NCBI GenBank assembly: GCA_016934055.1 | Contig: JAFGTR010000020.1 | Coordinates: 628 to 64,627 of the forward strand | Direction: 5' to 3' | Origin: Bacteroidales bacterium | GTDB taxonomy: Bacteria > Bacteroidota > Bacteroidia > Bacteroidales > UBA10428 | DNA length: 64,000 bases | Shown here: one piece after another, positions 1,438 to 62,470 of the stretch | Layout of the letters: each line of letters opens with the position of its first letter | Position numbering within the stretch: position 1 is the stretch's first letter | The notes under the pieces: model-generated | Databases searched by the model: none | What the model saw: the letters and a program-made list of their open reading frames with translations, nothing else | What the model was told of the DNA's origin: nothing | Made by a program: the position numbers and the translations under genes

Positions 1438-4400
1438 CTAAATCCCTCCCCCAGGTGGGGAGGGGTCGGGGGGTGGGGCTTCCGGTAAGGCAAAGCTGAA
1501 TGTGCTGCCCTTGCCTTCCTCACTGTGAACCGATATCTTACCTTCGTGAATTTCGATAAATTCCTTGCTTATCATAAGGCCTAAGCCTGATCCTTTCTCC
1601 CCCTGCGTGCCTCTTTGAATCTCCTGTTTAACAGGATTGAAAATGGTCTTCATAACACTTTTCGGCATCCCAATACCTGTATCGGTAACAGAAACATGTA
1701 CTTTTTTACCTTTCTTTTCAGCGCTGAGCGTTATGCTGCCATCTGCAGATGTAAACTTGATGGCATTGTTCACCAGGTTCCTGATAACAGTACTTATCAT
1801 ATCCTCATCGGCAAAAACTTCAAGATCATCGGGGATATCGACATGAAGCGTGATCTTTTTTTCTTTCAGCGTATGCTGGAAAACAGGGGCAATGGCTCTC
1901 ACAGCCTCATTAATCCGGAAAACCTTCTTGTTAACAAATATGTTACCTGATTGTGACCTGGCCCATTTCAGCATGTTCTCAAGCAGTTCATGAATCCGGC
2001 CGGATGAAGTCCTGATCATACTGATTATCTTAATCTTCTGATTGTCATCAATCTTATGAAAATCCCGCGTTAAAAGGTCAGTAAAACCCAGTAATGTGTT
2101 AAAAGGATCTTTAAGGTCATGGGCTATCAATGAGAACAATTTGTCTTTTGTGGTGTTAGCCTGCTTTAATTCCTGGTTGGCATGGATGAGGTCCGCAGCC
2201 TGGTACTGGAGTTGTTCTGCCTGTTCTTCAATATGCTGTTGCCGTTCCTCGAGCAGCGCATTTGTTTCATTCAGTTCTGTTGCCTGTTCCTCCAGTAATT
2301 TGTTTTTTTCACTCAGTTCCATTGTTCTTACCCTGACTTCCTTTTCGAGCTTTGCCTTCTGTTTATGAAGCTGTTTGACCCTGATGCGATAAAAGCCTGC
2401 AAAAACAGAAAGTATCAGCAAAGCCATCAAAAAACGGAAAATAAAAGTCTTATACCACGGAGGCATAACGATCACCTCAATGGAAGCGCCTTCAAGATTC
2501 CAATACCCGTCATTATTGGACGCAATGACCCTGAACACATACTTTTTCGGATCGAGGCTTGTATAGGTGGCTTCCCTTTTATTCCCGGCTTTAATCCATT
2601 CTTTATCAAAGCCTTCAAGTTTATAAGCGTACTGGTTCCTGAAGGTGTTGATCATGTTAAGGGCCAGAAATTCGAAAGTCACGACATCATCCTTCGCATC
2701 AAGTTTAATACTCCTGGTGTAACGTATGTCCTTCTGTAAAATTCCCTTTTCTGAAAATCCTTCAACTTCCTTATTGAAAATTTTTAACCCGGTGATCAAC
2801 ACCCTGGGCGGGCTTTCATTGTATTTAATCTTCCCGGGTGTTACCAGGTTCACCCCTTTATTTCCGCCAAAAAACATTGTATACTCTTCATTGACAAAAC
2901 CGGCCCTTGGGTATATTTCACCCGACAGGATACCATCATGCTGATCGAAGTTCTTACATTCACCTGTTACAGGATTGAGCCTTGTAATACCCTTGGTGGT
3001 GCCAATCCATAAAATACCTTTGTCATCTCCTAAAATTACATTGATAATGTTACTCTCAAATCCGTTGTTATACCGCACGAAATTGTTGCTGTCGGCATTA
3101 TACATATTAAGGCCGTCATTTGTACCTATCCACACACGCCCTATATAGTCTTCAAACAATGAGATAACCGTATTATCGGTAAGACTGTTTATGTTATTAT
3201 CATACTTATAATAGTTCTCAAAAACACTTTTGTCCTTTTCAAGCTTACTCAGGCCCCACACGGTTGCCACCCAGATGTTGCCGTTTTGGTCATGCATGAC
3301 CTGATAGCAATAGTCATTTGACAGGTTATTGTTCTTCTGGTTATAATGATAGAAAATCCCTTCCTCCCTGTCGAATCTGTCGATACCTTTACCGTGTACC
3401 ACAATCCAAAGGTCACCGTTCTCATCTTCGGTTATTGACCGGATGTCATTGTTGGCAATGCTTGTGGTGTCATCCGGATTGTTTCTTGTGCTGTAAAAAC
3501 GACATGTTGCAGGTTCATAATACTGCAATCCGCCCATGTTGGTTCCTACCCACATAACATTATTCCTGTCAGTGAAAAAACAGAATACGGCGCCTGCACC
3601 AAGGCCGTATTTGTCGTCCGGATTGTTGACATACCTTATTGTACGGCCTTCATTCCAATAAAAAATATCAATGCCGTTTGACGGATTTCCCAGCCACAGG
3701 CTGCCGTTTTTGTCTATACCGACAGCCGAGATGACATTGGATGAGACATACCAGTATTTGTCGGGAGAATCATCAAAGAATTGAAAACCTTTTGGGACAA
3801 CTGATAAACAAACACCTTCACCACTGTGCATGGTCCAGTAATTGCCCTGAGCATCCTGAAAAATACCTCCACAGGCATATTTAATCGAATAAGGATCACT
3901 TTCAAGGGGATAATAGCCTGTTAACAGGTCGTTTTCAGCATCATAAACTTTTAAACTTGTAACGTCAACCGTCCAGACCCTGTTATCACGGTCAATATAA
4001 ACTTTCCTGGCATACAGTTCATATTGGTTTTCCACCGGAAACCTTCTGAAAATCCCGGTTTTAATATCATAACAATTGATACCGCCATCATATGTGGCAA
4101 TCCACAGTTTGTCACCCTGCAACCCAAGACTCACAGGTGAATTACTGCTGACAGAATGAGGATCTTTCTCATCGTGAAAAAATTCTGATACATGACCGGT
4201 AGTGACATTCAGATGGATCAGTCCCCCTTCTTTTCTTACACCAATCCATATATTATCCTCCTCATCGAGGATAAATGAGGCGATATCGCCTTTTTCAATG
4301 TTAAACAACACTTTAAAATCCCGGTCACCTTCCTGAAACCTTGCAATTTCCAGTGTATTGGCTATATAAATATTACCTTTGCTGTCTTCCCTGATATCGA

Positions 4401-4797
4401 TGATTTCAAAAGCCGAAAGACCTGAAGAATCTGTGAGATGAGAAATCCATTCAAAATGATCATATTCGGGCACATAATAACAAAGCCCGCGATGGGTGCC
4501 AACCCAGAGCCGGCCATGTGAATCAAGGAATAATATGCTTATTTCATTATCGATCAGGCTATGATCATCACCAATAACAAATTTATATCCTTTAAGGCTG
4601 TATCCGTCAAAACGGTTTAACCCGCTTTGTGTTCCTATCCAGATGTAGCCGAGTGTATCCTGGGCAATAGCGGTAACATTGCTATTGGTCAGTTCAAGAT
4701 TATGCAAAGGATCAATAAACCGTAAGTCAGGCCTTTGTGAAAAAATGCAGGAAATCGTTAATGATACTGTTAATGTAAAAAGAATTGACCTTTTCAT
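1438..4797 (-). CDS. sensor histidine kinase with periplasmic two-component-regulator beta-propeller and Y_Y_Y domains (HTCS-like, but no receiver or AraC output)
   Basis: ORF 1438..4839. I place the start at the ATG at 4797 (MKRSILFTLTVSL signal/TM). Many IW(I/V)GT..GL propeller-blade repeats, one TM (FIFRFLMALLILSVFAGFY), a coiled coil, H-box SLIAHDLKDPFNT, and ATPase boxes NLVNNAIKFT, DTGIGM, GSGLGL. The protein ends right after the ATPase domain. Confidence 0.85.
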   Translation of the reverse strand: MKRSILFTLTVSLTISCIFSQRPDLRFIDPLHNLELTNSNVTAIAQDTLGYIWIGTQSGLNRFDGYSLKGYKFVIGDDHSLIDNEISILFLDSHGRLWVGTHRGLCYYVPEYDHFEWISHLTDSSGLSAFEIIDIREDSKGNIYIANTLEIARFQEGDRDFKVLFNIEKGDIASFILDEEDNIWIGVRKEGGLIHLNVTTGHVSEFFHDEKDPHSVSSNSPVSLGLQGDKLWIATYDGGINCYDIKTGIFRRFPVENQYELYARKVYIDRDNRVWTVDVTSLKVYDAENDLLTGYYPLESDPYSIKYACGGIFQDAQGNYWTMHSGEGVCLSVVPKGFQFFDDSPDKYWYVSSNVISAVGIDKNGSLWLGNPSNGIDIFYWNEGRTIRYVNNPDDKYGLGAGAVFCFFTDRNNVMWVGTNMGGLQYYEPATCRFYSTRNNPDDTTSIANNDIRSITEDENGDLWIVVHGKGIDRFDREEGIFYHYNQKNNNLSNDYCYQVMHDQNGNIWVATVWGLSKLEKDKSVFENYYKYDNNINSLTDNTVISLFEDYIGRVWIGTNDGLNMYNADSNNFVRYNNGFESNIINVILGDDKGILWIGTTKGITRLNPVTGECKNFDQHDGILSGEIYPRAGFVNEEYTMFFGGNKGVNLVTPGKIKYNESPPRVLITGLKIFNKEVEGFSEKGILQKDIRYTRSIKLDAKDDVVTFEFLALNMINTFRNQYAYKLEGFDKEWIKAGNKREATYTSLDPKKYVFRVIASNNDGYWNLEGASIEVIVMPPWYKTFIFRFLMALLILSVFAGFYRIRVKQLHKQKAKLEKEVRVRTMELSEKNKLLEEQATELNETNALLEERQQHIEEQAEQLQYQAADLIHANQELKQANTTKDKLFSLIAHDLKDPFNTLLGFTDLLTRDFHKIDDNQKIKIISMIRTSSGRIHELLENMLKWARSQSGNIFVNKKVFRINEAVRAIAPVFQHTLKEKKITLHVDIPDDLEVFADEDMISTVIRNLVNNAIKFTSADGSITLSAEKKGKKVHVSVTDTGIGMPKSVMKTIFNPVKQEIQRGTQGEKGSGLGLMISKEFIEIHEGKISVHSEEGKGSTFSFALPEAPPPDPSPPGGGI
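1444..1464. terminator. perfect 8-bp G:C hairpin (ccctcccc-caggt-ggggaggg) between convergent ldhA and kinase genes; possible bidirectional terminator
   Basis: Inverted repeat read directly from the sequence. It lies 21 nt after the ldhA stop and inside the last codons of the minus-strand kinase ORF. There is no clean U-tract. Confidence 0.45.
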
Positions 4798-4906
4798 GAT
4801 CTTAAGATAAAGAAAAAAAGGCAATTCTGCATAAAACATTCATGAAAATCAGAAGAAAATTTATTTGAACGGCAATGAGAACATATCAGAACAGGATTTT
4901 TTGGAT

Positions 4907-5064
4907 GAAGTCTGAATTGGGATTTGCGGGATTTTGGGATTGTTTGGATTGTTGGGGAGAGGTCGTGCGGTCTTGCAGTCGCGAAGAAAGACCTGCCAGG
5001 GTCTTTATGACCTGGCAGGGTCGGTTAGAGAAGTCTGAATTTGGATTTATGGGATTGTGGATAT
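4907..5064 (+). repeat. two direct copies of gaagtctgaatt(g/t)ggattt..gggatt.. (4907-4942 and 5029-5064), G/T-rich short-period tract
   Basis: Aligned by eye, about 29 of 35 positions identical. The tract is part of mosaic element locus 1. Confidence 0.7.
4988..5021. repeat. two small hairpins agacc-tgccag-ggtct (4988-5003) and gacc-tggcag-ggtc (5008-5021); a third copy lies at 37763-37778
   Basis: Sequence identity read directly. The same 14-16-nt word occurs in the left and right parts of the window. Confidence 0.7.
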
Positions 5065-5072
5065 GTAAACTT

Positions 5073-5109
5073 ATGTCTTCAAACCCGGAGGGTTTGTATG
5101 TTTATAGAA
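5073..5109 (+). repeat. 37-nt conserved hairpin module H1 (atgtcttCAAACCCggaGGGTTTGtatgtttatagaa), copy 1 of 3
   Basis: Identical to 62332-62368 and 35/37 identical to 52519-52555. The stem is a perfect 7 bp with a 3-nt loop. Confidence 0.9.
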
Positions 5110-5130
5110 AACGCATGTAAAATCGACAAA

Positions 5131-5159
5131 CGACCCCGTTAGGGGTCGCATGTCAATCA
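5131..5159. repeat. hairpin module H2 (cGACCCC-gtta-GGGGTCg + catgtcaatca), copy 1 of 2; on the minus strand it could serve as the gpmA terminator
   Basis: Second copy at 62391-62418 has the same stem, a different loop (atca) and the same 11-nt tail. On the minus strand this hairpin lies 18 nt after the gpmA stop and is followed by tttgtcgatttt. Confidence 0.75.
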
Positions 5160-5166
5160 ACAAAAC

Positions 5167-5916
5167 TTATTTTGCCTTTCCCTGGCTGGCAACGGCATCC
5201 ATGGCCTTTTTTATGGCTTCCTGATCACCCAGATAATAATGTTTAATGGGTTTCAGATCTTCATCGAGTTCGTAAACCAGCGGAACCCCGGTAGGAATAT
5301 TGAGGCTGATAACTTCTTCATCGCTCATATTGTCGAGGTATTTGACAAGAGCCCGCAGACTGTTCCCGTGGGCTGCAATCAACACCCTTTTTCCTGATTT
5401 AATGGCAGGAGCTATGGTTTCATGCCAGTAAGGCAAAAATCTTTCAACTGTGTCTTTCAGGCATTCCGTAAGAGGAAGATCATTTTTATCCACATCGTTA
5501 TACACATCCTGATTACCGGGATAACGCGGATCACTTGTCTCCAGCGGAGGAGGCGGAACATCGTAACTGCGACGCCATATCTTCACTTTTTCTTCACCAT
5601 GGGCAGCTGCAGTCTCCGCTTTGTTAAGCCCCTGCAGGGAGCCGTAATGCCTTTCGTTGAGCCTCCATGTCTTGATCCATGGAATCCAGAGCTGATCCAT
5701 CTCTTCAAGTGCCAGCCATAAAGTTCTCAAAGCTCTTTTTAACACCGAAACATAGGCGACATCAAACTGAAAACCTTCTTTTTTCATGATCCTTCCGGCA
5801 GCACGTGCTTCTTCCATTCCTTTTTCAGAAAGATCAACGTCAGTCCAGCCTGTAAACCGGTTTTCTTTATTCCAGGTACTTTCACCATGGCGTAATAAGA
5901 CAACTTTGTACATCAT
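5167..5916 (-). CDS. gpmA: 2,3-bisphosphoglycerate-dependent phosphoglycerate mutase
   Basis: 249 aa, with the RHGESTWN phosphohistidine motif and a full-length dPGM pattern ([13 protein letters not shown] ... AHGNSLRAL). Confidence 0.95.
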
Positions 5917-8045: not shown

Positions 8046-8145
8046 AATATAATAACAATTTACTTAATGCAAATCTAATAAAACTCCTTGTACGGCAATA
8101 CTTTTGTTGACTATATTTGCGTTACGATAACAATTGCTTTCTTTT

Positions 8146-10074
8146 ATGATGGTTAATCCGGTTGATTACAGCAAGCGCAAAAGCAGATCATACCTTAAAT
8201 CAATATTGATTTTTTATGGTTTTATTTCCGTTTTCACCAGCTGTGCAAAAGTTGGTTCTCCCACAGGCGGCCCTAAGGATGAAAATCCCCCGGCGGTCAT
8301 CGCATGCAGTCCGGAAAACGGCGCTGTGAACAACAAGACAAAAGACATAGAGATAACATTCGATGAATTCATTGTTCTGAAAAATCTCAACGAAGAGCTG
8401 GTCATCTCTCCGCCTCTGAAAGAAAAGCCCATTACGCGGATACGCAGCAAGACACTTGTCATCGACCTTAATAACAATCCCGCAGACAGCACCACCTACA
8501 CGCTAAATTTCGGAAATGCCATTGCTGATAACAATGAAGGCAACCTGTTGCCTGATTATGAATTTGTCTTTTCAACCGGTCCCTTTATCGATTCGTTATC
8601 TGTAACCGGCACGGCAGTTAATGCTTTTAACCTGAAACCCGAGAAAGAAAAAGTGTTTGTTATGCTGTATGATAACCTGGGTGATTCCGCACCCTACCTT
8701 GAACTGCCGGCCTATATAACCAAAACAGGCACGAATGGTAAATTTGCCATCAACAATATCAGGCCGGATACTTTCAGGCTTTTCGCCCTGAAAGATGTCA
8801 ATAACAATCTGAAGTTTGACATCCCTGATGAAATGATCGCCTTTGGCGATTCTGCCATCATTGTTTCACCGGAAAATGTTCAGAAGATCAATTTTGTCAA
8901 GGATTCCGCCCTGCTGAAACCCGTGCAGAAAGCCACTGATAAAGAAAAGGGCGCTGCTGCCGACACGATAGCGGCAGACAGCGTTTCATTCAAAGGAAAA
9001 GAATTGTATGCCGTGAATGCTGACCTCTTTCTTTTTGTTGAAGAAGATATGCGTCAGGGCATCATTGAAAAAGAAAGAGAATCCCGCGAATTGCTTACTT
9101 TCGTCTTCAACAGGACATTATTTGATTCGATACAGCTGATACCCCTGAACTTCACAGCGGAGAACTGGTATCTGAAGGATATTTCGCAAAATAAAGATAC
9201 TGCCAGCTTTTGGATTACAGACAGCACGCTGATCAAACTGGATACCCTTTCCCTGGCTGTGTCATATTCAACAACCGACTCAGCCCTGAATTTTGTAACG
9301 CGGACAGACACAATAACCTTCCTGTACAGGATAAAGGAGGATAAAAGCAAGCCGGGCCGCAAAACCAAAGAAACCTTACCCGACCAGGATTCTCTGCTGA
9401 TATCATTATCGGCCAACATCCGTAATCAATCTGTTGCCAACCTTAACCAGTCCATCCTGATCATCTCGCCCAGGCCCGTTTCTTCATATGATATTCATAA
9501 GTTCAGCCTTTACCGCTTTGAGGATACACTGCAATACAGTCAGCCCGTGAAATTTGCCGAAGACACATCAGCTCTTTATACAGTAAAATTTTCAACCGAC
9601 TGGACAGAAAATACGGCATACCGGTTGTTGGTTGAACCGGGTGCTGTTACAGATATTTACGGCGCCACCAATGATACTTTTGAGATTTCTTTCAGGACGC
9701 AAAAAGGCGACTATTACGGTCGTATTATGCTTTCGCTGAAAAGCCGTGAATTCCCTGTCATTGTTCAACTCACAGATGAGAAAGAAAACAGGATTGCTGA
9801 AAAATCAATAACAAAAGATGAGGTTGTCACTTTTGATTTTCTTTCACCCAAAAAATACAGGTTTAAAGCTGTCATTGACAAAAACGGCAACAGGAAATGG
9901 GATACCGGTAATTACCTCAAACACATCCAGCCCGAAAAAGTCATTAATTATCCCGGGCTGATGGATGTTCGCTCAAACTGGGATGTTGAAATCAGCTGGA
10001 GCCTTGACGGGGGAGAGCAGAGCGGGAATGAGAATGAGAATGAGGAAAGGTATCCGGTAAACGGTATTCGGTAA
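8146..10074 (+). CDS. Ig-like (Big_5/SbsA-type) domain lipoprotein
   Basis: The track ORF starts at a TTG (8134); I prefer the ATG at 8146. Lipobox ISVFTSC, then the GSPTGGPKDENPP...ITFDEFIVL pattern typical of bacterial Ig-like domain lipoproteins. The last codons (GNENENEERYPVNGIR) are encoded by tandem repeats. Confidence 0.7.
   Translation: MMVNPVDYSKRKSRSYLKSILIFYGFISVFTSCAKVGSPTGGPKDENPPAVIACSPENGAVNNKTKDIEITFDEFIVLKNLNEELVISPPLKEKPITRIRSKTLVIDLNNNPADSTTYTLNFGNAIADNNEGNLLPDYEFVFSTGPFIDSLSVTGTAVNAFNLKPEKEKVFVMLYDNLGDSAPYLELPAYITKTGTNGKFAINNIRPDTFRLFALKDVNNNLKFDIPDEMIAFGDSAIIVSPENVQKINFVKDSALLKPVQKATDKEKGAAADTIAADSVSFKGKELYAVNADLFLFVEEDMRQGIIEKERESRELLTFVFNRTLFDSIQLIPLNFTAENWYLKDISQNKDTASFWITDSTLIKLDTLSLAVSYSTTDSALNFVTRTDTITFLYRIKEDKSKPGRKTKETLPDQDSLLISLSANIRNQSVANLNQSILIISPRPVSSYDIHKFSLYRFEDTLQYSQPVKFAEDTSALYTVKFSTDWTENTAYRLLVEPGAVTDIYGATNDTFEISFRTQKGDYYGRIMLSLKSREFPVIVQLTDEKENRIAEKSITKDEVVTFDFLSPKKYRFKAVIDKNGNRKWDTGNYLKHIQPEKVINYPGLMDVRSNWDVEISWSLDGGEQSGNENENEERYPVNGIR
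10026..10043 (+). repeat. (GAATGA)x3 tandem hexamer
   Basis: Read directly. The same hexamer array recurs at 52487-52503, 62242-62259 and 62288-62317. Confidence 0.9.
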
Positions 10075-10082
10075 TCGGTAAA
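10055..10082 (+). repeat. (CGGTAWW)x4 tandem heptamer (cggtaaa cggtatt cggtaat cggtaaa)
   Basis: Read directly. It spans the stop codon of the Ig-like lipoprotein gene. Confidence 0.85.
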
Positions 10083-10097
10083 CCTTGCGCGGGCCGA

Positions 10098-10811
10098 CTA
10101 CCACAACTTCGCATAAGCCAGGGTAAGAATACTCACCTGCGTGCCTTCAACGGAAAGTATGGGCGCAGCGCAGGCCTCAAGTGTCGATCCGGTGGTGACA
10201 ACATCATCTACCAGTAAAACATGCTTATTCTTAAGCTTTTCAGGATGTATCACCCTGAAAATCCCTTCGACATTTGACCAGCGTTCATATTTCGATTTGC
10301 GTGTCTGTGTATCAGTATACATTACCCTTTCAACCAGGCCTGTTTCCATTGGAAGTGAAAGGCTTTCAGAAAGGCCTTTTGCTATAAGTTCACTCTGGTT
10401 ATAGCCTCTCTTCCTTTGCTTCCTGACATGCAACGGAACCGGATGGATAAGGTCGGCATGGCAGAAAGGGGTGTTTACCAGTTCGTGGCCATACCATCTG
10501 CCCATCTCCATGCCCAAATGCCGGCAATTATGATATTTCACCTTATGGATGATGTTCTGAAAGCGGCTGCCCTTCTGGTAAAAAAAAAAAGAAGCAGCAT
10601 TTTTTATCATCACCCGGCCCCAAAAAAGCCTGGCTGTATCATTCGCAGGATCGAGATGAAAGCCGGTGCGCGGAAATTCGCAGTTGCATTTCAGGCAAAG
10701 TATACTCTCATTGCCATACAATACACCAGAACAGGCCGGACAAAGCCTTGGAAAAAACAAGCCGGCCAGGCTTTCTCCCATAACGGACAGTTTGTCTCTG
10801 AGATATTTCAA
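10098..10811 (-). CDS. ComF family protein (amidophosphoribosyltransferase-like)
   Basis: 237 aa. N-terminal Cys-rich zinc finger (CPACSG ... CLKCNC) and C-terminal PRPP-binding motif VLLVDDVVTTGSTL. Confidence 0.85.
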   Translation of the reverse strand: MKYLRDKLSVMGESLAGLFFPRLCPACSGVLYGNESILCLKCNCEFPRTGFHLDPANDTARLFWGRVMIKNAASFFFYQKGSRFQNIIHKVKYHNCRHLGMEMGRWYGHELVNTPFCHADLIHPVPLHVRKQRKRGYNQSELIAKGLSESLSLPMETGLVERVMYTDTQTRKSKYERWSNVEGIFRVIHPEKLKNKHVLLVDDVVTTGSTLEACAAPILSVEGTQVSILTLAYAKLW

Positions 10812-11245: not shown

Positions 11246-11310
11246 ATTTACTGATAATTTTAATACCTTTATTTTCAAATTTAATGAATAAACTGAAGTT
11301 GCAACAAATA

Positions 11311-11359
11311 AAGAGTCAAGAATCAAGAGTATAGACTATAGAACAAAGAATAAAGATTT
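11311..11359 (+). repeat. 7-nt periodic purine-rich tract (aagagtc aagaatc aagagta tagacta tagaaca aagaata aagattt)
   Basis: Read directly. Its first 17 nt nearly match 52589-52606 (aagagcc aagaatc aaga). Confidence 0.75.
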
Positions 11360-52259: not shown

Positions 52260-52401
52260 CTAATTATTTGCTAAATAAAATAAAATTATTTTTCAAATGC
52301 ACCTGAAATAGCCGAGATTACAAATGAATTCGGGATAATATCGTAATTTTGATGAAGCATGTCTTTGTGGTTTTTTCTATATCAGGTTAAATGCAGGAGG
52401 T

Positions 52402-52485
52402 GAGAAGCAAGAACCAGGAGCCAAGAGCTAAGAGCCAAGAAGCAAGATAAAAGACAAAGGATCAAAGAAGGAAGGGAAGGGAGTC
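52402..52485 (+). repeat. 7-nt periodic purine-rich tract (gagaagc aagaacc aggagcc aagagct aagagcc aagaagc aagataa aagacaa aggatca aagaagg aagggaa gggagtc)
   Basis: Partitioned by hand. The first six units fit RAGARCY and later units degenerate. Confidence 0.8.
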
Positions 52486-52486
52486 A

Positions 52487-52503
52487 GAATGAGAATGAGA
52501 ATG
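52487..52503 (+). repeat. (GAATGA) tandem hexamer, about 2.8 copies
   Basis: Read directly. Confidence 0.85.
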
Positions 52504-52518
52504 GGGAAATATGGCATT

Positions 52519-52555
52519 ATGTTTTCAAACCCGGAGGGTTTGTATATTTATAGAA
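52519..52555 (+). repeat. 37-nt hairpin module H1, copy 2 of 3 (35/37 identical to the other two)
   Basis: atgttttCAAACCCggaGGGTTTGtatatttatagaa. Both substitutions lie outside the stem. Confidence 0.9.
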
Positions 52556-52588
52556 GATGCTTCAAAAGTTTTACATCGTAAATTGAAA

Positions 52589-52637
52589 AAGAGCCAAGAA
52601 TCAAGAACAAAGAGCAAAAAATAAGGATTAAAGATGA
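52589..52637 (+). repeat. second 7-nt periodic purine-rich tract (aagagcc aagaatc aagaaca aagagca aaaaata aggatta aagatga)
   Basis: Partitioned by hand. Related to 11311-11359. Confidence 0.75.
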
Positions 52638-52700
52638 GACTGTAAATATTTTATGTAAACTGGCAGAAAAGATAGTACTAATATTTTTCAATATACTGAT

Positions 52701-62200: not shown

Positions 62201-62241
62201 TGAGTCACTGCTGGCAGGGTGCGGGAGTGGAGTGAGAGCGA

Positions 62242-62259
62242 AAATGAGAATGAGAATGA
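62242..62259 (+). repeat. (GAATGA) tandem hexamer, about 3 copies (aaatga gaatga gaatga)
   Basis: Read directly. Confidence 0.85.
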
Positions 62260-62287
62260 GGAAAGAAAGAGAACCAGAAAGGAATCA

Positions 62288-62317
62288 GAATGAGAATGAG
62301 AATGAGAATGAGAATGA
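62288..62317 (+). repeat. (GAATGA)x5 perfect tandem hexamer
   Basis: Read directly. This is the longest array of this unit in the window. Confidence 0.95.
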
Positions 62318-62331
62318 AAAAAGATGGTGTG

Positions 62332-62368
62332 ATGTCTTCAAACCCGGAGGGTTTGTATGTTTATAGAA
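62332..62368 (+). repeat. 37-nt hairpin module H1, copy 3 of 3 (identical to 5073-5109)
   Basis: Read directly. Confidence 0.9.
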
Positions 62369-62390
62369 GGAGTATTTTGGGTTGGTTTTT

Positions 62391-62418
62391 GACCCCATCA
62401 GGGGTCACATGTCAATCA
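62391..62418. repeat. hairpin module H2, copy 2 of 2 (GACCCC-atca-GGGGTC + a + catgtcaatca)
   Basis: The same stem and 11-nt tail as 5132-5159 with a different loop. The 22-nt spacing from H1 is also the same. Confidence 0.8.
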
Positions 62419-62470
62419 GCACAGGGAGAAAGGAATCCGGAACTTTATGCAAATAACAAGGAGGGAATGA

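Follow-up and report, generated by a model that had tools for sequence, protein, structure and literature searches.

Repetitive extragenic palindromic (REP) sequences and their inverted doublets (REPINs), together with the REP-associated tyrosine transposases (RAYTs), are the best-studied long-lived repeats within bacterial genomes, and their known occurrence is largely confined to Proteobacteria plus a few further groups. For both IS608 TnpA and the E. coli RAYT, a Y1 dimer binds hairpins in single-stranded DNA (ssDNA), and cleaves and rejoins the strand where neighbouring bases specify. In the reference classification of these enzymes (Quentin et al. 2018, PMC6006769), TnpA-Y1 subclass 1.2 was published as having no associated REPs, and the Bacteroidetes-specific RAYT subclass 2.6 is marked by the Y motif YIH[QN]NP. 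Here we analyse a 64,000-nt stretch of DNA from a Bacteroidales bacterium (contig JAFGTR010000020.1 of assembly GCA_016934055.1, positions 628 to 64,627), hereafter the window, in which a first-pass annotation had singled out three loci with hairpin modules (locus 1, 4875-5166; locus 2, 52380-52640; locus 3, 62201-62470). We consider it probable that these loci are truncated copies of a dispersed, non-autonomous repeat of environmental Bacteroidota, similar to REPs, REPINs and bacterial interspersed mosaic elements (BIMEs), with a cognate IS200-like Y1 (HUH) transposase of 154 amino acids. The family appears to be previously undescribed, as literature searches on its 12-nt motif and on Bacteroidetes repeats of the REP, IS200 or MITE (miniature inverted-repeat transposable element) type found no account of it.

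The window copies are built from two hairpin modules. Module A is a near-identical 37-nt unit present three times, just as the annotation had it: the copies at 5073-5109 and 62332-62368 are identical, and the one at 52519-52555 differs at two positions, both outside the stem. Its 22-nt core, TTCAAACCCGGAGGGTTTGTAT, occurs three times in the window, on the plus strand only, and not once in 100 shuffles when up to three mismatches are allowed. Module B, GACCCC-N4-GGGGTC-N-CATGTCAATCA, has two copies in the window, at 5132 and 62391, where none is expected, and in loci 1 and 3 it starts exactly 22 nt past TTTATAGAA, so that the fixed spacing claimed for it holds. The two hairpins had been said to resemble each other, and indeed they fall into one structural class, GANNCC-loop-GGNNTC. 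A fourth copy (L018:8396-8509; loci outside the window carry the prefix L) lies in the same genome, ~0.7 kb outside the window start and on the opposite strand, on contig JAFGWB010000288.1 of GCA_016937675.1, where locus 1 is unchanged; the window's gpmA protein is 100% identical to a Bacteroidales bacterium protein from a metagenome-assembled genome (MAG). Hairpin and tail are identical in locus 1, locus 3 and this fourth copy while the spacers differ, which, on the sequences compared, points to either constraint on hairpin and tail or recent copying. The spacers of loci 1 and 3 had been called unrelated; they do differ from each other, but that of locus 3 recurs in the fourth copy with about 93% identity over roughly 90 nt, an estimate from sequences compared by eye.

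Loci in other genomes reveal the larger architecture. There, module A is followed by GTTTATAGAA and, ~22 nt on, by a hairpin CGAC(C/T)CC-N4-GG(G/A)GTCG, usually with a mirror image thereafter that consists of TTCTATAAACAT and a second hairpin. The canonical element of ~122 nt thus reads: A-class hairpin, the 12-nt tail ATGTTTATAGAA, ~23 nt, a central hairpin (hpB) in the context T-N-CGACYCC-N4-GGRGTCG-N-A, ~23 nt, TTCTATAAACAT, G-class hairpin. Counting as tails all occurrences of ATGTTTATAGAA with at most one mismatch (n = 302), we found that in 246 of the 302 a hairpin of 6 bp or more ends 0-3 nt 5' of the tail, compared with 3% of shuffled upstream segments, and that the next inverted tail was 50-69 nt distant in 104 of 123 cases. 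The loop of the outer hairpin is almost always 3 nt long (RGM), and its inner stems, of the form RANNCC...GGNNTY, come in 39 distinct versions. Among 54 non-redundant full elements the two spacers measure 22-24 nt and 20-24 nt, and the foot of hpB carries an invariant T...A pair. Stems at one end are of the A class (e.g. CAAACCC, TAATCCC, CAAATCC, GAAACC), those at the other of the G class (e.g. GACCTC, GATGCC, GACCCC); the classes differ at the two ends in nearly all of 101 full elements, A-A or G-G combinations being rare, so that across the constant linker that holds hpB an A-class hairpin is nearly always partnered by a G-class one. In predicted folds of these 101 inverted doublets, the tails pair over 12 bp.

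Judged by sequence, the window modules correspond to the left half of this element, module A being the A-class outer hairpin and module B the central one. A covariance model (R1) whose training set, 48 full elements, came from other lineages and contained nothing from the window matches the window only at 5080-5173 (57.4 bits, E = 1.6e-7), 62339-62423 (53.9 bits) and 52526-52592 (29.9 bits, E = 0.0047), the next-best window match reaching 10.5 bits, and it also finds the fourth copy. The window copies are without the right half, hpB being followed instead by a lineage-specific CATGTCAATCA(G/A)CA, and all four copies of the source genome are singlets with no inverted partner.

The pairing of the four proposed helices was tested in an alignment of 48 sequences (A1). 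Helix cells were paired in 95.5% of cases, against 29-47% when the partners were slid by 1-3 columns, and 146 cells showed double changes, against 48.9 in column shuffles, none of 500 shuffles reaching 146. Compensatory changes are present in all three hairpins. The 12-bp helix between the two tails is invariant, and covariation therefore neither supports nor refutes it. No support was found for pairing of columns 58-77, the second position in the foot of hpB, where 36 of the 48 sequences are unpaired, and a long stem formed by spacer-spacer pairing was discarded because such pairing is merely partial and irregular. G-U or U-G pairs make up about 12 of 1649 cells (~0.7%), and because wobble pairs are nearly absent, a Watson-Crick palindrome kept at the DNA level would seem to fit the pairing pattern better than an RNA under structural selection. 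The element is dyad-symmetric, both strands folding alike, and in the window both hairpins are predicted to form in ssDNA of either strand (z = -4.5 at locus 1 and -2.9 at locus 3; range -2.9 to -5.2).

Covarying stems could also speak for a structured RNA, either a small RNA gene or a cis-acting element of the 3' untranslated region such as a terminator or mRNA stabiliser, and an RNA family was among the options that the annotation had considered. Both flanks of the element are T-rich when read on the A-to-G strand, with 66, 55 and 55% T at positions +1 to +3 after the last hairpin, module A is terminator-like on the plus strand, and there is a mild orientation bias, the G-side neighbour being directed towards the element in 26 cases against 12, all of which suits an RNA. 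The elements nevertheless occur in tandem, convergent and divergent intergenic regions and in both orientations, being exclusively intergenic, and the weakness of the orientation bias, the dyad symmetry and the scarcity of G-U pairs all argue against it. At locus 1 the strand that resembles a terminator runs antisense to the genes on either side, and the claim that a plain terminator role is insufficient stands. A tRNA is the one Rfam match in the window at gathering thresholds, and scans by E-value of loci 1 and 3 and six canonical loci gave no recurrent match, so that the suggested Rfam comparison yields no family for the modules; a lone BTnc231 match at locus 1 (20.1 bits against a gathering threshold of 80.4) is absent from locus 3 and from the six canonical loci and was set aside as chance. 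An RNA would furthermore leave the tight link to a DNA transposase, described below, unexplained, and we regard this alternative as very improbable.

In five unrelated contigs, elements bracket open reading frames (ORFs) of ~154 amino acids, and all five products match Y1_Tnp (PF01797, E = 1.9e-21 to 8.5e-25). They carry the motifs NHIH, WQ and YIE(K/N)QKEHH and belong to a strongly conserved protein family, with 80-93% identity across genera. By tblastn, homologues with 80-87% identity were found in 13 of 137 loci selected by motif (0.81 Mb in total); L040 has a fragment, and three further Y1 genes are more distant. Since the copy number of such genes is 1.7 per genome (PMC6006769), that is, one or two per several-Mb genome, well under one Y1 gene would be expected by chance in 0.81 Mb. 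The linkage also holds in the opposite direction. A reciprocal protein search returned at least 8000 clusters at 90% identity, named 'IS200/IS605 family transposase' or 'RayT', and in the six independent loci selected by protein (Saccharicrinis isolate L144; Mangrovibacterium L145; L146; L147; Prolixibacteraceae L148; L149-151) an element lies upstream of the Y1 gene in all six and downstream in five. The arrangement is precise. In 20 of 21 gene copies a reverse-complement tail ends 41-224 nt before the Y1 start codon; a tail lies within 200 nt downstream in 16 of the 21. In 10 copies the distance from stop codon to tail is 15-33 nt, and several of the 10 have a G-class hairpin that overlaps the TGA or TAA. 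Elements on the two sides of a gene have the same polarity, the A-class hairpin facing the start and the G-class hairpin the stop in 15 of 17 independent loci, and the gene neighbours of Y1 differ between loci. In the Saccharicrinis locus (L144:1-20468), which has an element upstream only, the Y1 gene, at 10001-10468, is found in an apparent defence island with an Eco57I-type enzyme, SNF2 and DEAD helicases and MZB.

One could imagine that the elements are sites for a host DNA-binding or nucleoid-structuring protein, acting independently of Y1 as IHF and gyrase do at BIMEs, and that Y1 is just a frequent neighbour. Invariant inverted 12-mers at a fixed ~64 nt around a palindromic centre do resemble a composite binding site. 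The Y1 linkage, however, holds whether one starts from the motif or from the protein and is precise in position, no candidate host factor turned up, and outer stems that vary while their pairing is kept suggest hairpin extrusion rather than duplex recognition. We therefore consider a host-protein site extremely unlikely.

The proximity of hairpins and gene lends itself to yet another explanation, in which the units would be scars left by the ends of an autonomous insertion sequence (IS) of IS200-like type, consisting of A-class hairpin, Y1 and G-class hairpin, and the dispersed elements would be right-end/left-end junctions that arose from tandem insertion and deletion. Several loci have a G-class hairpin that adjoins the stop codon of Y1 or runs over it and an A-class hairpin 30-55 nt ahead of the start, much like the subterminal end hairpins of IS200/IS605; L147 holds three 628-nt units in tandem, L146 retains part of a Y1 3' end upstream of its intact gene, and the NCBIfam name of the protein is that of an IS200/IS605 transposase (model NF033573, 56-67 bits against a cutoff of 55). 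Isolated elements, on the other hand, have their hairpins outside, their tails inside and unique flanks, which is the opposite of an internal-deletion product, and elements far outnumber genes, with 302 tails against about 14 Y1 genes in the 0.81 Mb of motif-selected loci. The matching protein subclass is moreover reported as low-copy and without IS properties (PMC6006769). An origin as IS scars thus seems unlikely, and the topology of the isolated elements favours the 122-nt element as the mobile unit, as in the REPIN model, over a gene with its proximal hairpins, as in the IS model.

The likeness to REP/BIME-type mosaics suggested in the first-pass annotation is supported by two hairpin classes that alternate, inverted, across linkers of fixed length, comparable to the Y and Z REPs of BIMEs, and by Y1 genes flanked by elements in other genomes. 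The comparison with BIMEs is an architectural analogy and not one of homology. As with the REP/BIME and RAYT systems of Enterobacteria and Pseudomonas, the repeats are short, G+C-rich extragenic hairpins in many copies, with a mild excess at gene 3' ends; as in a REPIN, the canonical elements, if not the window copies, are inverted doublets able to form one larger hairpin; and as in a REPtron, though in other lineages than that of the window, the repeats stand on both sides of a small gene for a Y1 HUH transposase. They differ from REPs in carrying the 12-nt motif ATGTTTATAGAA on the inner (3') side of the outer hairpin, from REP/BIME in having a third, sequence-conserved central hairpin in the linker, and from REP/RAYT in that the enzyme is IS200-like rather than a class 2 RAYT and the host phylum is Bacteroidota. 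With IS200/IS605 and PATEs, the derivatives of these that have lost the gene, they share the Y1 transposase, hairpins near both gene ends on one strand and the lack of a visible target duplication, and, by analogy, probably a single-strand mechanism. Unlike IS200/IS605, the dispersed unit is gene-less, its hairpins are outermost, its inverted 12-mers are long, elements outnumber genes and there is no TnpB. ERIC/Correia/RUP-type MITEs are likewise imperfect intergenic palindromes of about 100-150 bp, but their terminal inverted repeats are conserved, they duplicate targets such as TA and their partners are DDE transposases, whereas here the termini vary, the flanks of 54 elements show no duplication and the partner is a Y1 enzyme. 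The CGTC REPs of some Bacteroidetes (Di Nocera et al. 2013, PMC3733652) are extragenic palindromes of the same phylum that also occur mostly as head-to-head dimers; they are described as having a CGTC head that is unpaired, stems of 8-9 bp with A/T pairs first, loops of 4-5 nt, a CCA tail and no transposase, and by that description their stems, loops and tail all differ from those of the present element.

Judged by its motifs, the enzyme would belong to subclass 1.2 in the scheme of Quentin et al. 2018 (PMC6006769), given its Y---Q--HH signature (YIEKQKEHH here), WQ motif, length of ~150 amino acids, conserved C-terminal tail and occurrence in Bacteroidetes. It departs from the published subclass in that a hairpin element flanks 20 of 21 gene copies, and in an HuH motif that reads NHIH and not DH[IV]H, and its Y motif is unlike that of RAYT subclass 2.6. 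The solved IS200-like transposases 2f4f and 2xm3 are distant relatives of weak similarity. A distant Y1 at L025:2259-2699 (minus-strand coordinates) has 36% identity, the Y motif YILNQPEHH and its own direct repeat on both sides, which contains AGGTTTAAAGAA within a TTGCCAT/ATGGCAA stem; other members of the Y1 clade may thus have cognate repeats of their own.

The elements are conserved, polar, hairpin-forming DNA repeats that are physically coupled to a Y1 gene and vary in copy number between strains. By analogy with the systems above, Y1 would be the enzyme that mobilises them, and the system would appear to work like REP/REPIN-RAYT while standing outside the classical GTAG-REP/RAYT family, from which it differs in both repeat foot and enzyme clade. 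One could go further and propose, as a possibility with slightly less than even odds, that the elements and Y1 subclass 1.2 form an unrecognised partnership of the REPIN-RAYT type across many Bacteroidota, drawn from the IS200 branch (class 1) as a second, convergent domestication of Y1 independent of the class 2 RAYTs, and with a recognition logic of its own: three hairpins, a 12-nt inverted motif, polar A/G ends and a G-class hairpin on the Y1 stop codon. Mechanistically, and on the model of IS608 TnpA and the E. coli RAYT, a Y1 dimer would recognise hairpins extruded on ssDNA, likely on the lagging-strand template, with the invariant 12-mers and hpB as putative determinants of specificity and cleavage; cleavage and rejoining would occur at sites set by adjacent conserved bases, and Y1 would copy or maintain the elements in trans. 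The 12-mers and hpB are candidates for the specificity bases because they are conserved alongside a protein that is itself 80-93% conserved, while the outer stems drift. Neighbouring genes are antisense to the A-to-G strand more often than not (50 vs 31, both sides summed), which, with the orientation of the Y1 gene, is weakly consistent with an active strand on the lagging-strand template.

Several observations weigh against a Y1-mobilised repeat of this kind. The polarity relative to Y1 is reversed in two of the 17 independent loci, L064 and L149-151. The RAYT model NF047646 gives only 20-21 bits, against a cutoff of 80, for two of the five proteins and no match for the other three, and, unlike REPs, the elements have no GT[AG]G foot, their 5' flank being only T- or A-rich. 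No Y1 gene was detected in the 64-kb window by tblastn (E <= 1e-3), and Pfam scans of 20 window ORFs revealed no transposase domain; the Y1 gene of the RAYT/IS200 type that the annotation had proposed to look for was thus found, flanked by elements, in other genomes but not in the window. An all-against-all BLAST of the flanks provided no clean pair of filled and empty sites, only tandem copy-number variants, and such differences could come from recombination or slippage. Finally, the outer hairpin followed by TATGTTTATA passes a simple terminator scan on the plus strand, so that a side effect at the RNA level is possible. With neither a Y1 gene nor a right half in the window, its copies are probably immobile relics, which would act locally only by forming hairpins, either in DNA or in transcripts that read through; module A could serve the plus-strand gene at locus 3 as a weak terminator, but has no such part at locus 1.

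A cognate repeat can now be put forward for a Y1 clade listed in the reference classification as having no REPs, and with a consensus sequence, a covariance model, polarity rules and a culturable carrier at hand, Saccharicrinis sp. GN24d3 (L144), the chemistry of recognition and cleavage becomes testable. The elements also enlarge intergenic regions, make spurious ORFs and probably break metagenome assemblies, and masking them would help the annotation of Bacteroidota. Examples of spurious ORFs or N-terminal extensions are MAWHGTTPEGLYVYRN... fused to Y1 in L055 (9184-9843) and an 81-aa ORF across locus 1 (4875-5120).

The search for further copies that had been suggested showed the family to extend far beyond the window. 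Among GTDB species representatives, the pattern TTCAAACCC-N3-GGGTTTGTAT is found at 17 loci, nearly all in Bacteroidota MAGs, with Mariniphaga, Prolixibacteraceae, Bacteroidales UBA2287, uncultured Bacteroidia and one Flavobacteriaceae bin as carriers, and at least 120 metagenome stretches match a pattern anchored on tail and central hairpin only. The latter pattern has no match in viral contigs, plasmids have no DNA match to a canonical element, and the Y1 protein is rare on plasmids (two records, both Bacteroidota megaplasmids and both below 60% identity); a phage or plasmid origin was rejected on these grounds.

The intergenic regions at the window loci turn over quickly, as is indicated by relatives of the source genome with ~90% amino-acid identity (L019-L023), which have no module A or B downstream of gpmA, R1 finding nothing in 28 kb of them, and which carry other hairpins (CCTGCC-N4-GGCAGG) and an extra gene there. 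The intergenic regions orthologous to those at gpmA and cysS likewise contain no modules in a ~90% relative. The extra gene, of 236-255 amino acids and with no Pfam match, sits between gpmA and the histidine kinase gene (L019:10973-11683, L021:3876-4643), where the window has its repeat mosaic. Copy number varies in tandem: L079 has three tandem full elements and the orthologous L129, with closely similar flanks, has one, and L151 differs from L149 by an extra module block of ~316 nt beside an identical Y1 protein and gene. Tandem arrays were seen in L017, L079 and L149-151. That of L017 (3800-6200) is a non-coding array of ~2.4 kb with five units of 381-383 nt, each comprising an element and further hairpins such as CTACCCCGGGTAG...ACCCGGGGT, and at L147:8745-10465 three tandem units of Y1 and a full element follow one another with a period of 628 nt, the G-class hairpin overlapping each stop codon. 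The flanks of the 54 elements showed no target-site duplication or direct repeat by inspection.

Within the window, the gene contexts of the three loci, all intergenic, are as they had been described, and with the fourth copy the count comes to four in ~69 kb of source-genome sequence. Locus 1 is flanked by a hybrid histidine kinase gene (1438-4839, minus strand) and gpmA (5167-5916, minus strand). Its A-class hairpin CAAACCC-GGA-GGGTTTG (5080-5096; this and the other parts listed for the three loci are on the plus strand) aligns to R1 model positions 1-17 as the outer hairpin and is followed by the near-invariant 12-nt tail ATGTTTATAGAA (5098-5109) and a variable, A-rich spacer (5110-5130), which makes 22 nt up to GAC where the family ranges over 22-24 nt. 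The central hairpin CGACCCC-GTTA-GGGGTCG (5131-5148) was assigned from the pattern count, the R1 alignment and folding, and behind it the lineage-specific 3' extension CATGTCAATCA (5149-5159) takes the place of the canonical right half, that is, of the spacer, TTCTATAAACAT and the G-class hairpin. Upstream, at 4990-5022, two G-class-like hairpins, GACCTGCCAGGGTC and GACCTGGCAGGGTC, the second followed by the degenerate tail TTAGAGAA, may by their sequence represent a decayed unit, and the region 4907-5060 is mosaic filler, with a direct repeat of 31 nt at 4907-4937 and 5030-5060 and, at 4917-4956, a tract of period 9.

Locus 2 separates a PspC-domain gene (minus strand) from dtd (plus strand), which are divergent. 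Its A-class hairpin (52526-52542), within the R1 match at 52526-52592, is followed by the tail variant ATATTTATAGAA (52544-52555) and by no hpB, which makes it a solo unit, and upstream of the hairpin, in 52403-52503, are a heptamer tract (52403-52447), to which another at 52588-52635 is related, and (AGAATG)3 (52486-52503). Locus 3 lies between a gene of 966 amino acids (plus strand) and a carB-like gene (minus strand), which are convergent, and it comprises an (AATGAG)n tract of 12.8 copies (62243-62317), the A-class hairpin (62339-62355), the tail ATGTTTATAGAA as read from the sequence (62357-62368), a spacer close to that of the fourth copy (62369-62389), the central hairpin TGACCCC-ATCA-GGGGTCA (62390-62407), whose T-A foot pair, against C-G at locus 1, is a compensatory change, and the 3' extension CATGTCAATCA assigned by pattern count (62408-62418). 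A different short-period tract had been reported upstream of each locus, which is not the case, as loci 2 and 3 have a common (GAGAAT)n tract and linker with 86% identity over 76 nt. A coding reading of module A, either as a C-terminus ...VFKPGGFV(C/Y)L* or as a start ATG-TCT-TCA..., was rejected because both orientations occur, the element is dyad-symmetric and the downstream frames are inconsistent, and the Bacteroidota promoter (TTTG ... TAnnTTTG), with sequences read by eye, had no consistent fit in module A or the left flanks.

The label 'mosaic' given in the annotation proved apt, as the copies of the source genome are embedded among other short-period and hairpin modules, namely (GAGAAT)n, (CGGTAAA)n, AAGAGYC heptamers, GGGATTT nonamers and GACCTGSCAGGGTC hairpins. 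Such modules also stand alone at 10013-10083, 11307-11357 and 37764, and are absent or much shorter in the 90% relative. A second repeat family, starting (G)AGAGCGGGAATGAGAATGAGAATGAGG, is present at 10013-10056, 52474-52517 and 62229-62324 of the window and at L018:8170-8300 and L019:17027-17060, often at or over a gene 3' end and, in the window, also preceding module A; it makes the Big_5 ORF at 8134-10074 ~23 codons longer than in the relative, and the patatin genes of L018 and of its 90% relative both end in it. A (GAATGA)n tract, otherwise very rare (seven occurrences in 0.93 Mb of loci), begins 56-57 nt upstream of the 12-nt tail, in the orientation of the unit, in two unrelated lineages, at locus 2 (52487) and in L079/L129. 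The period-7 tract (CGGTAAA)n / GGTATYCGGTAAAC recurs at 10049-10083 and at L018:8490-8525, one of them directly 3' of the fourth copy, and purine-rich heptamer tracts (AAGAGYC / AAGAATC) lie in divergent promoter regions at 11307-11357, 52401-52476 and 52588-52635. The OsmC-Crp intergenic region is far longer in the window than the 64 nt of the 90% relative. G+C-rich hairpin modules, GACCTGSCAGGGTC and CCTGCC-N-GGCAGG, stand at gene 3' ends in the source genome (4990-5022, 37764-37777, 37539-37570) and the relative (L019:10760-10870), with no 12-nt tail. Finally, unrelated to the element, a Bacteroidales MAG has at L012:2507-2554 (minus strand) a sub-threshold match to the Acido-Lenti-1 RNA (29.4 bits against a gathering threshold of 37, E = 0.0075).

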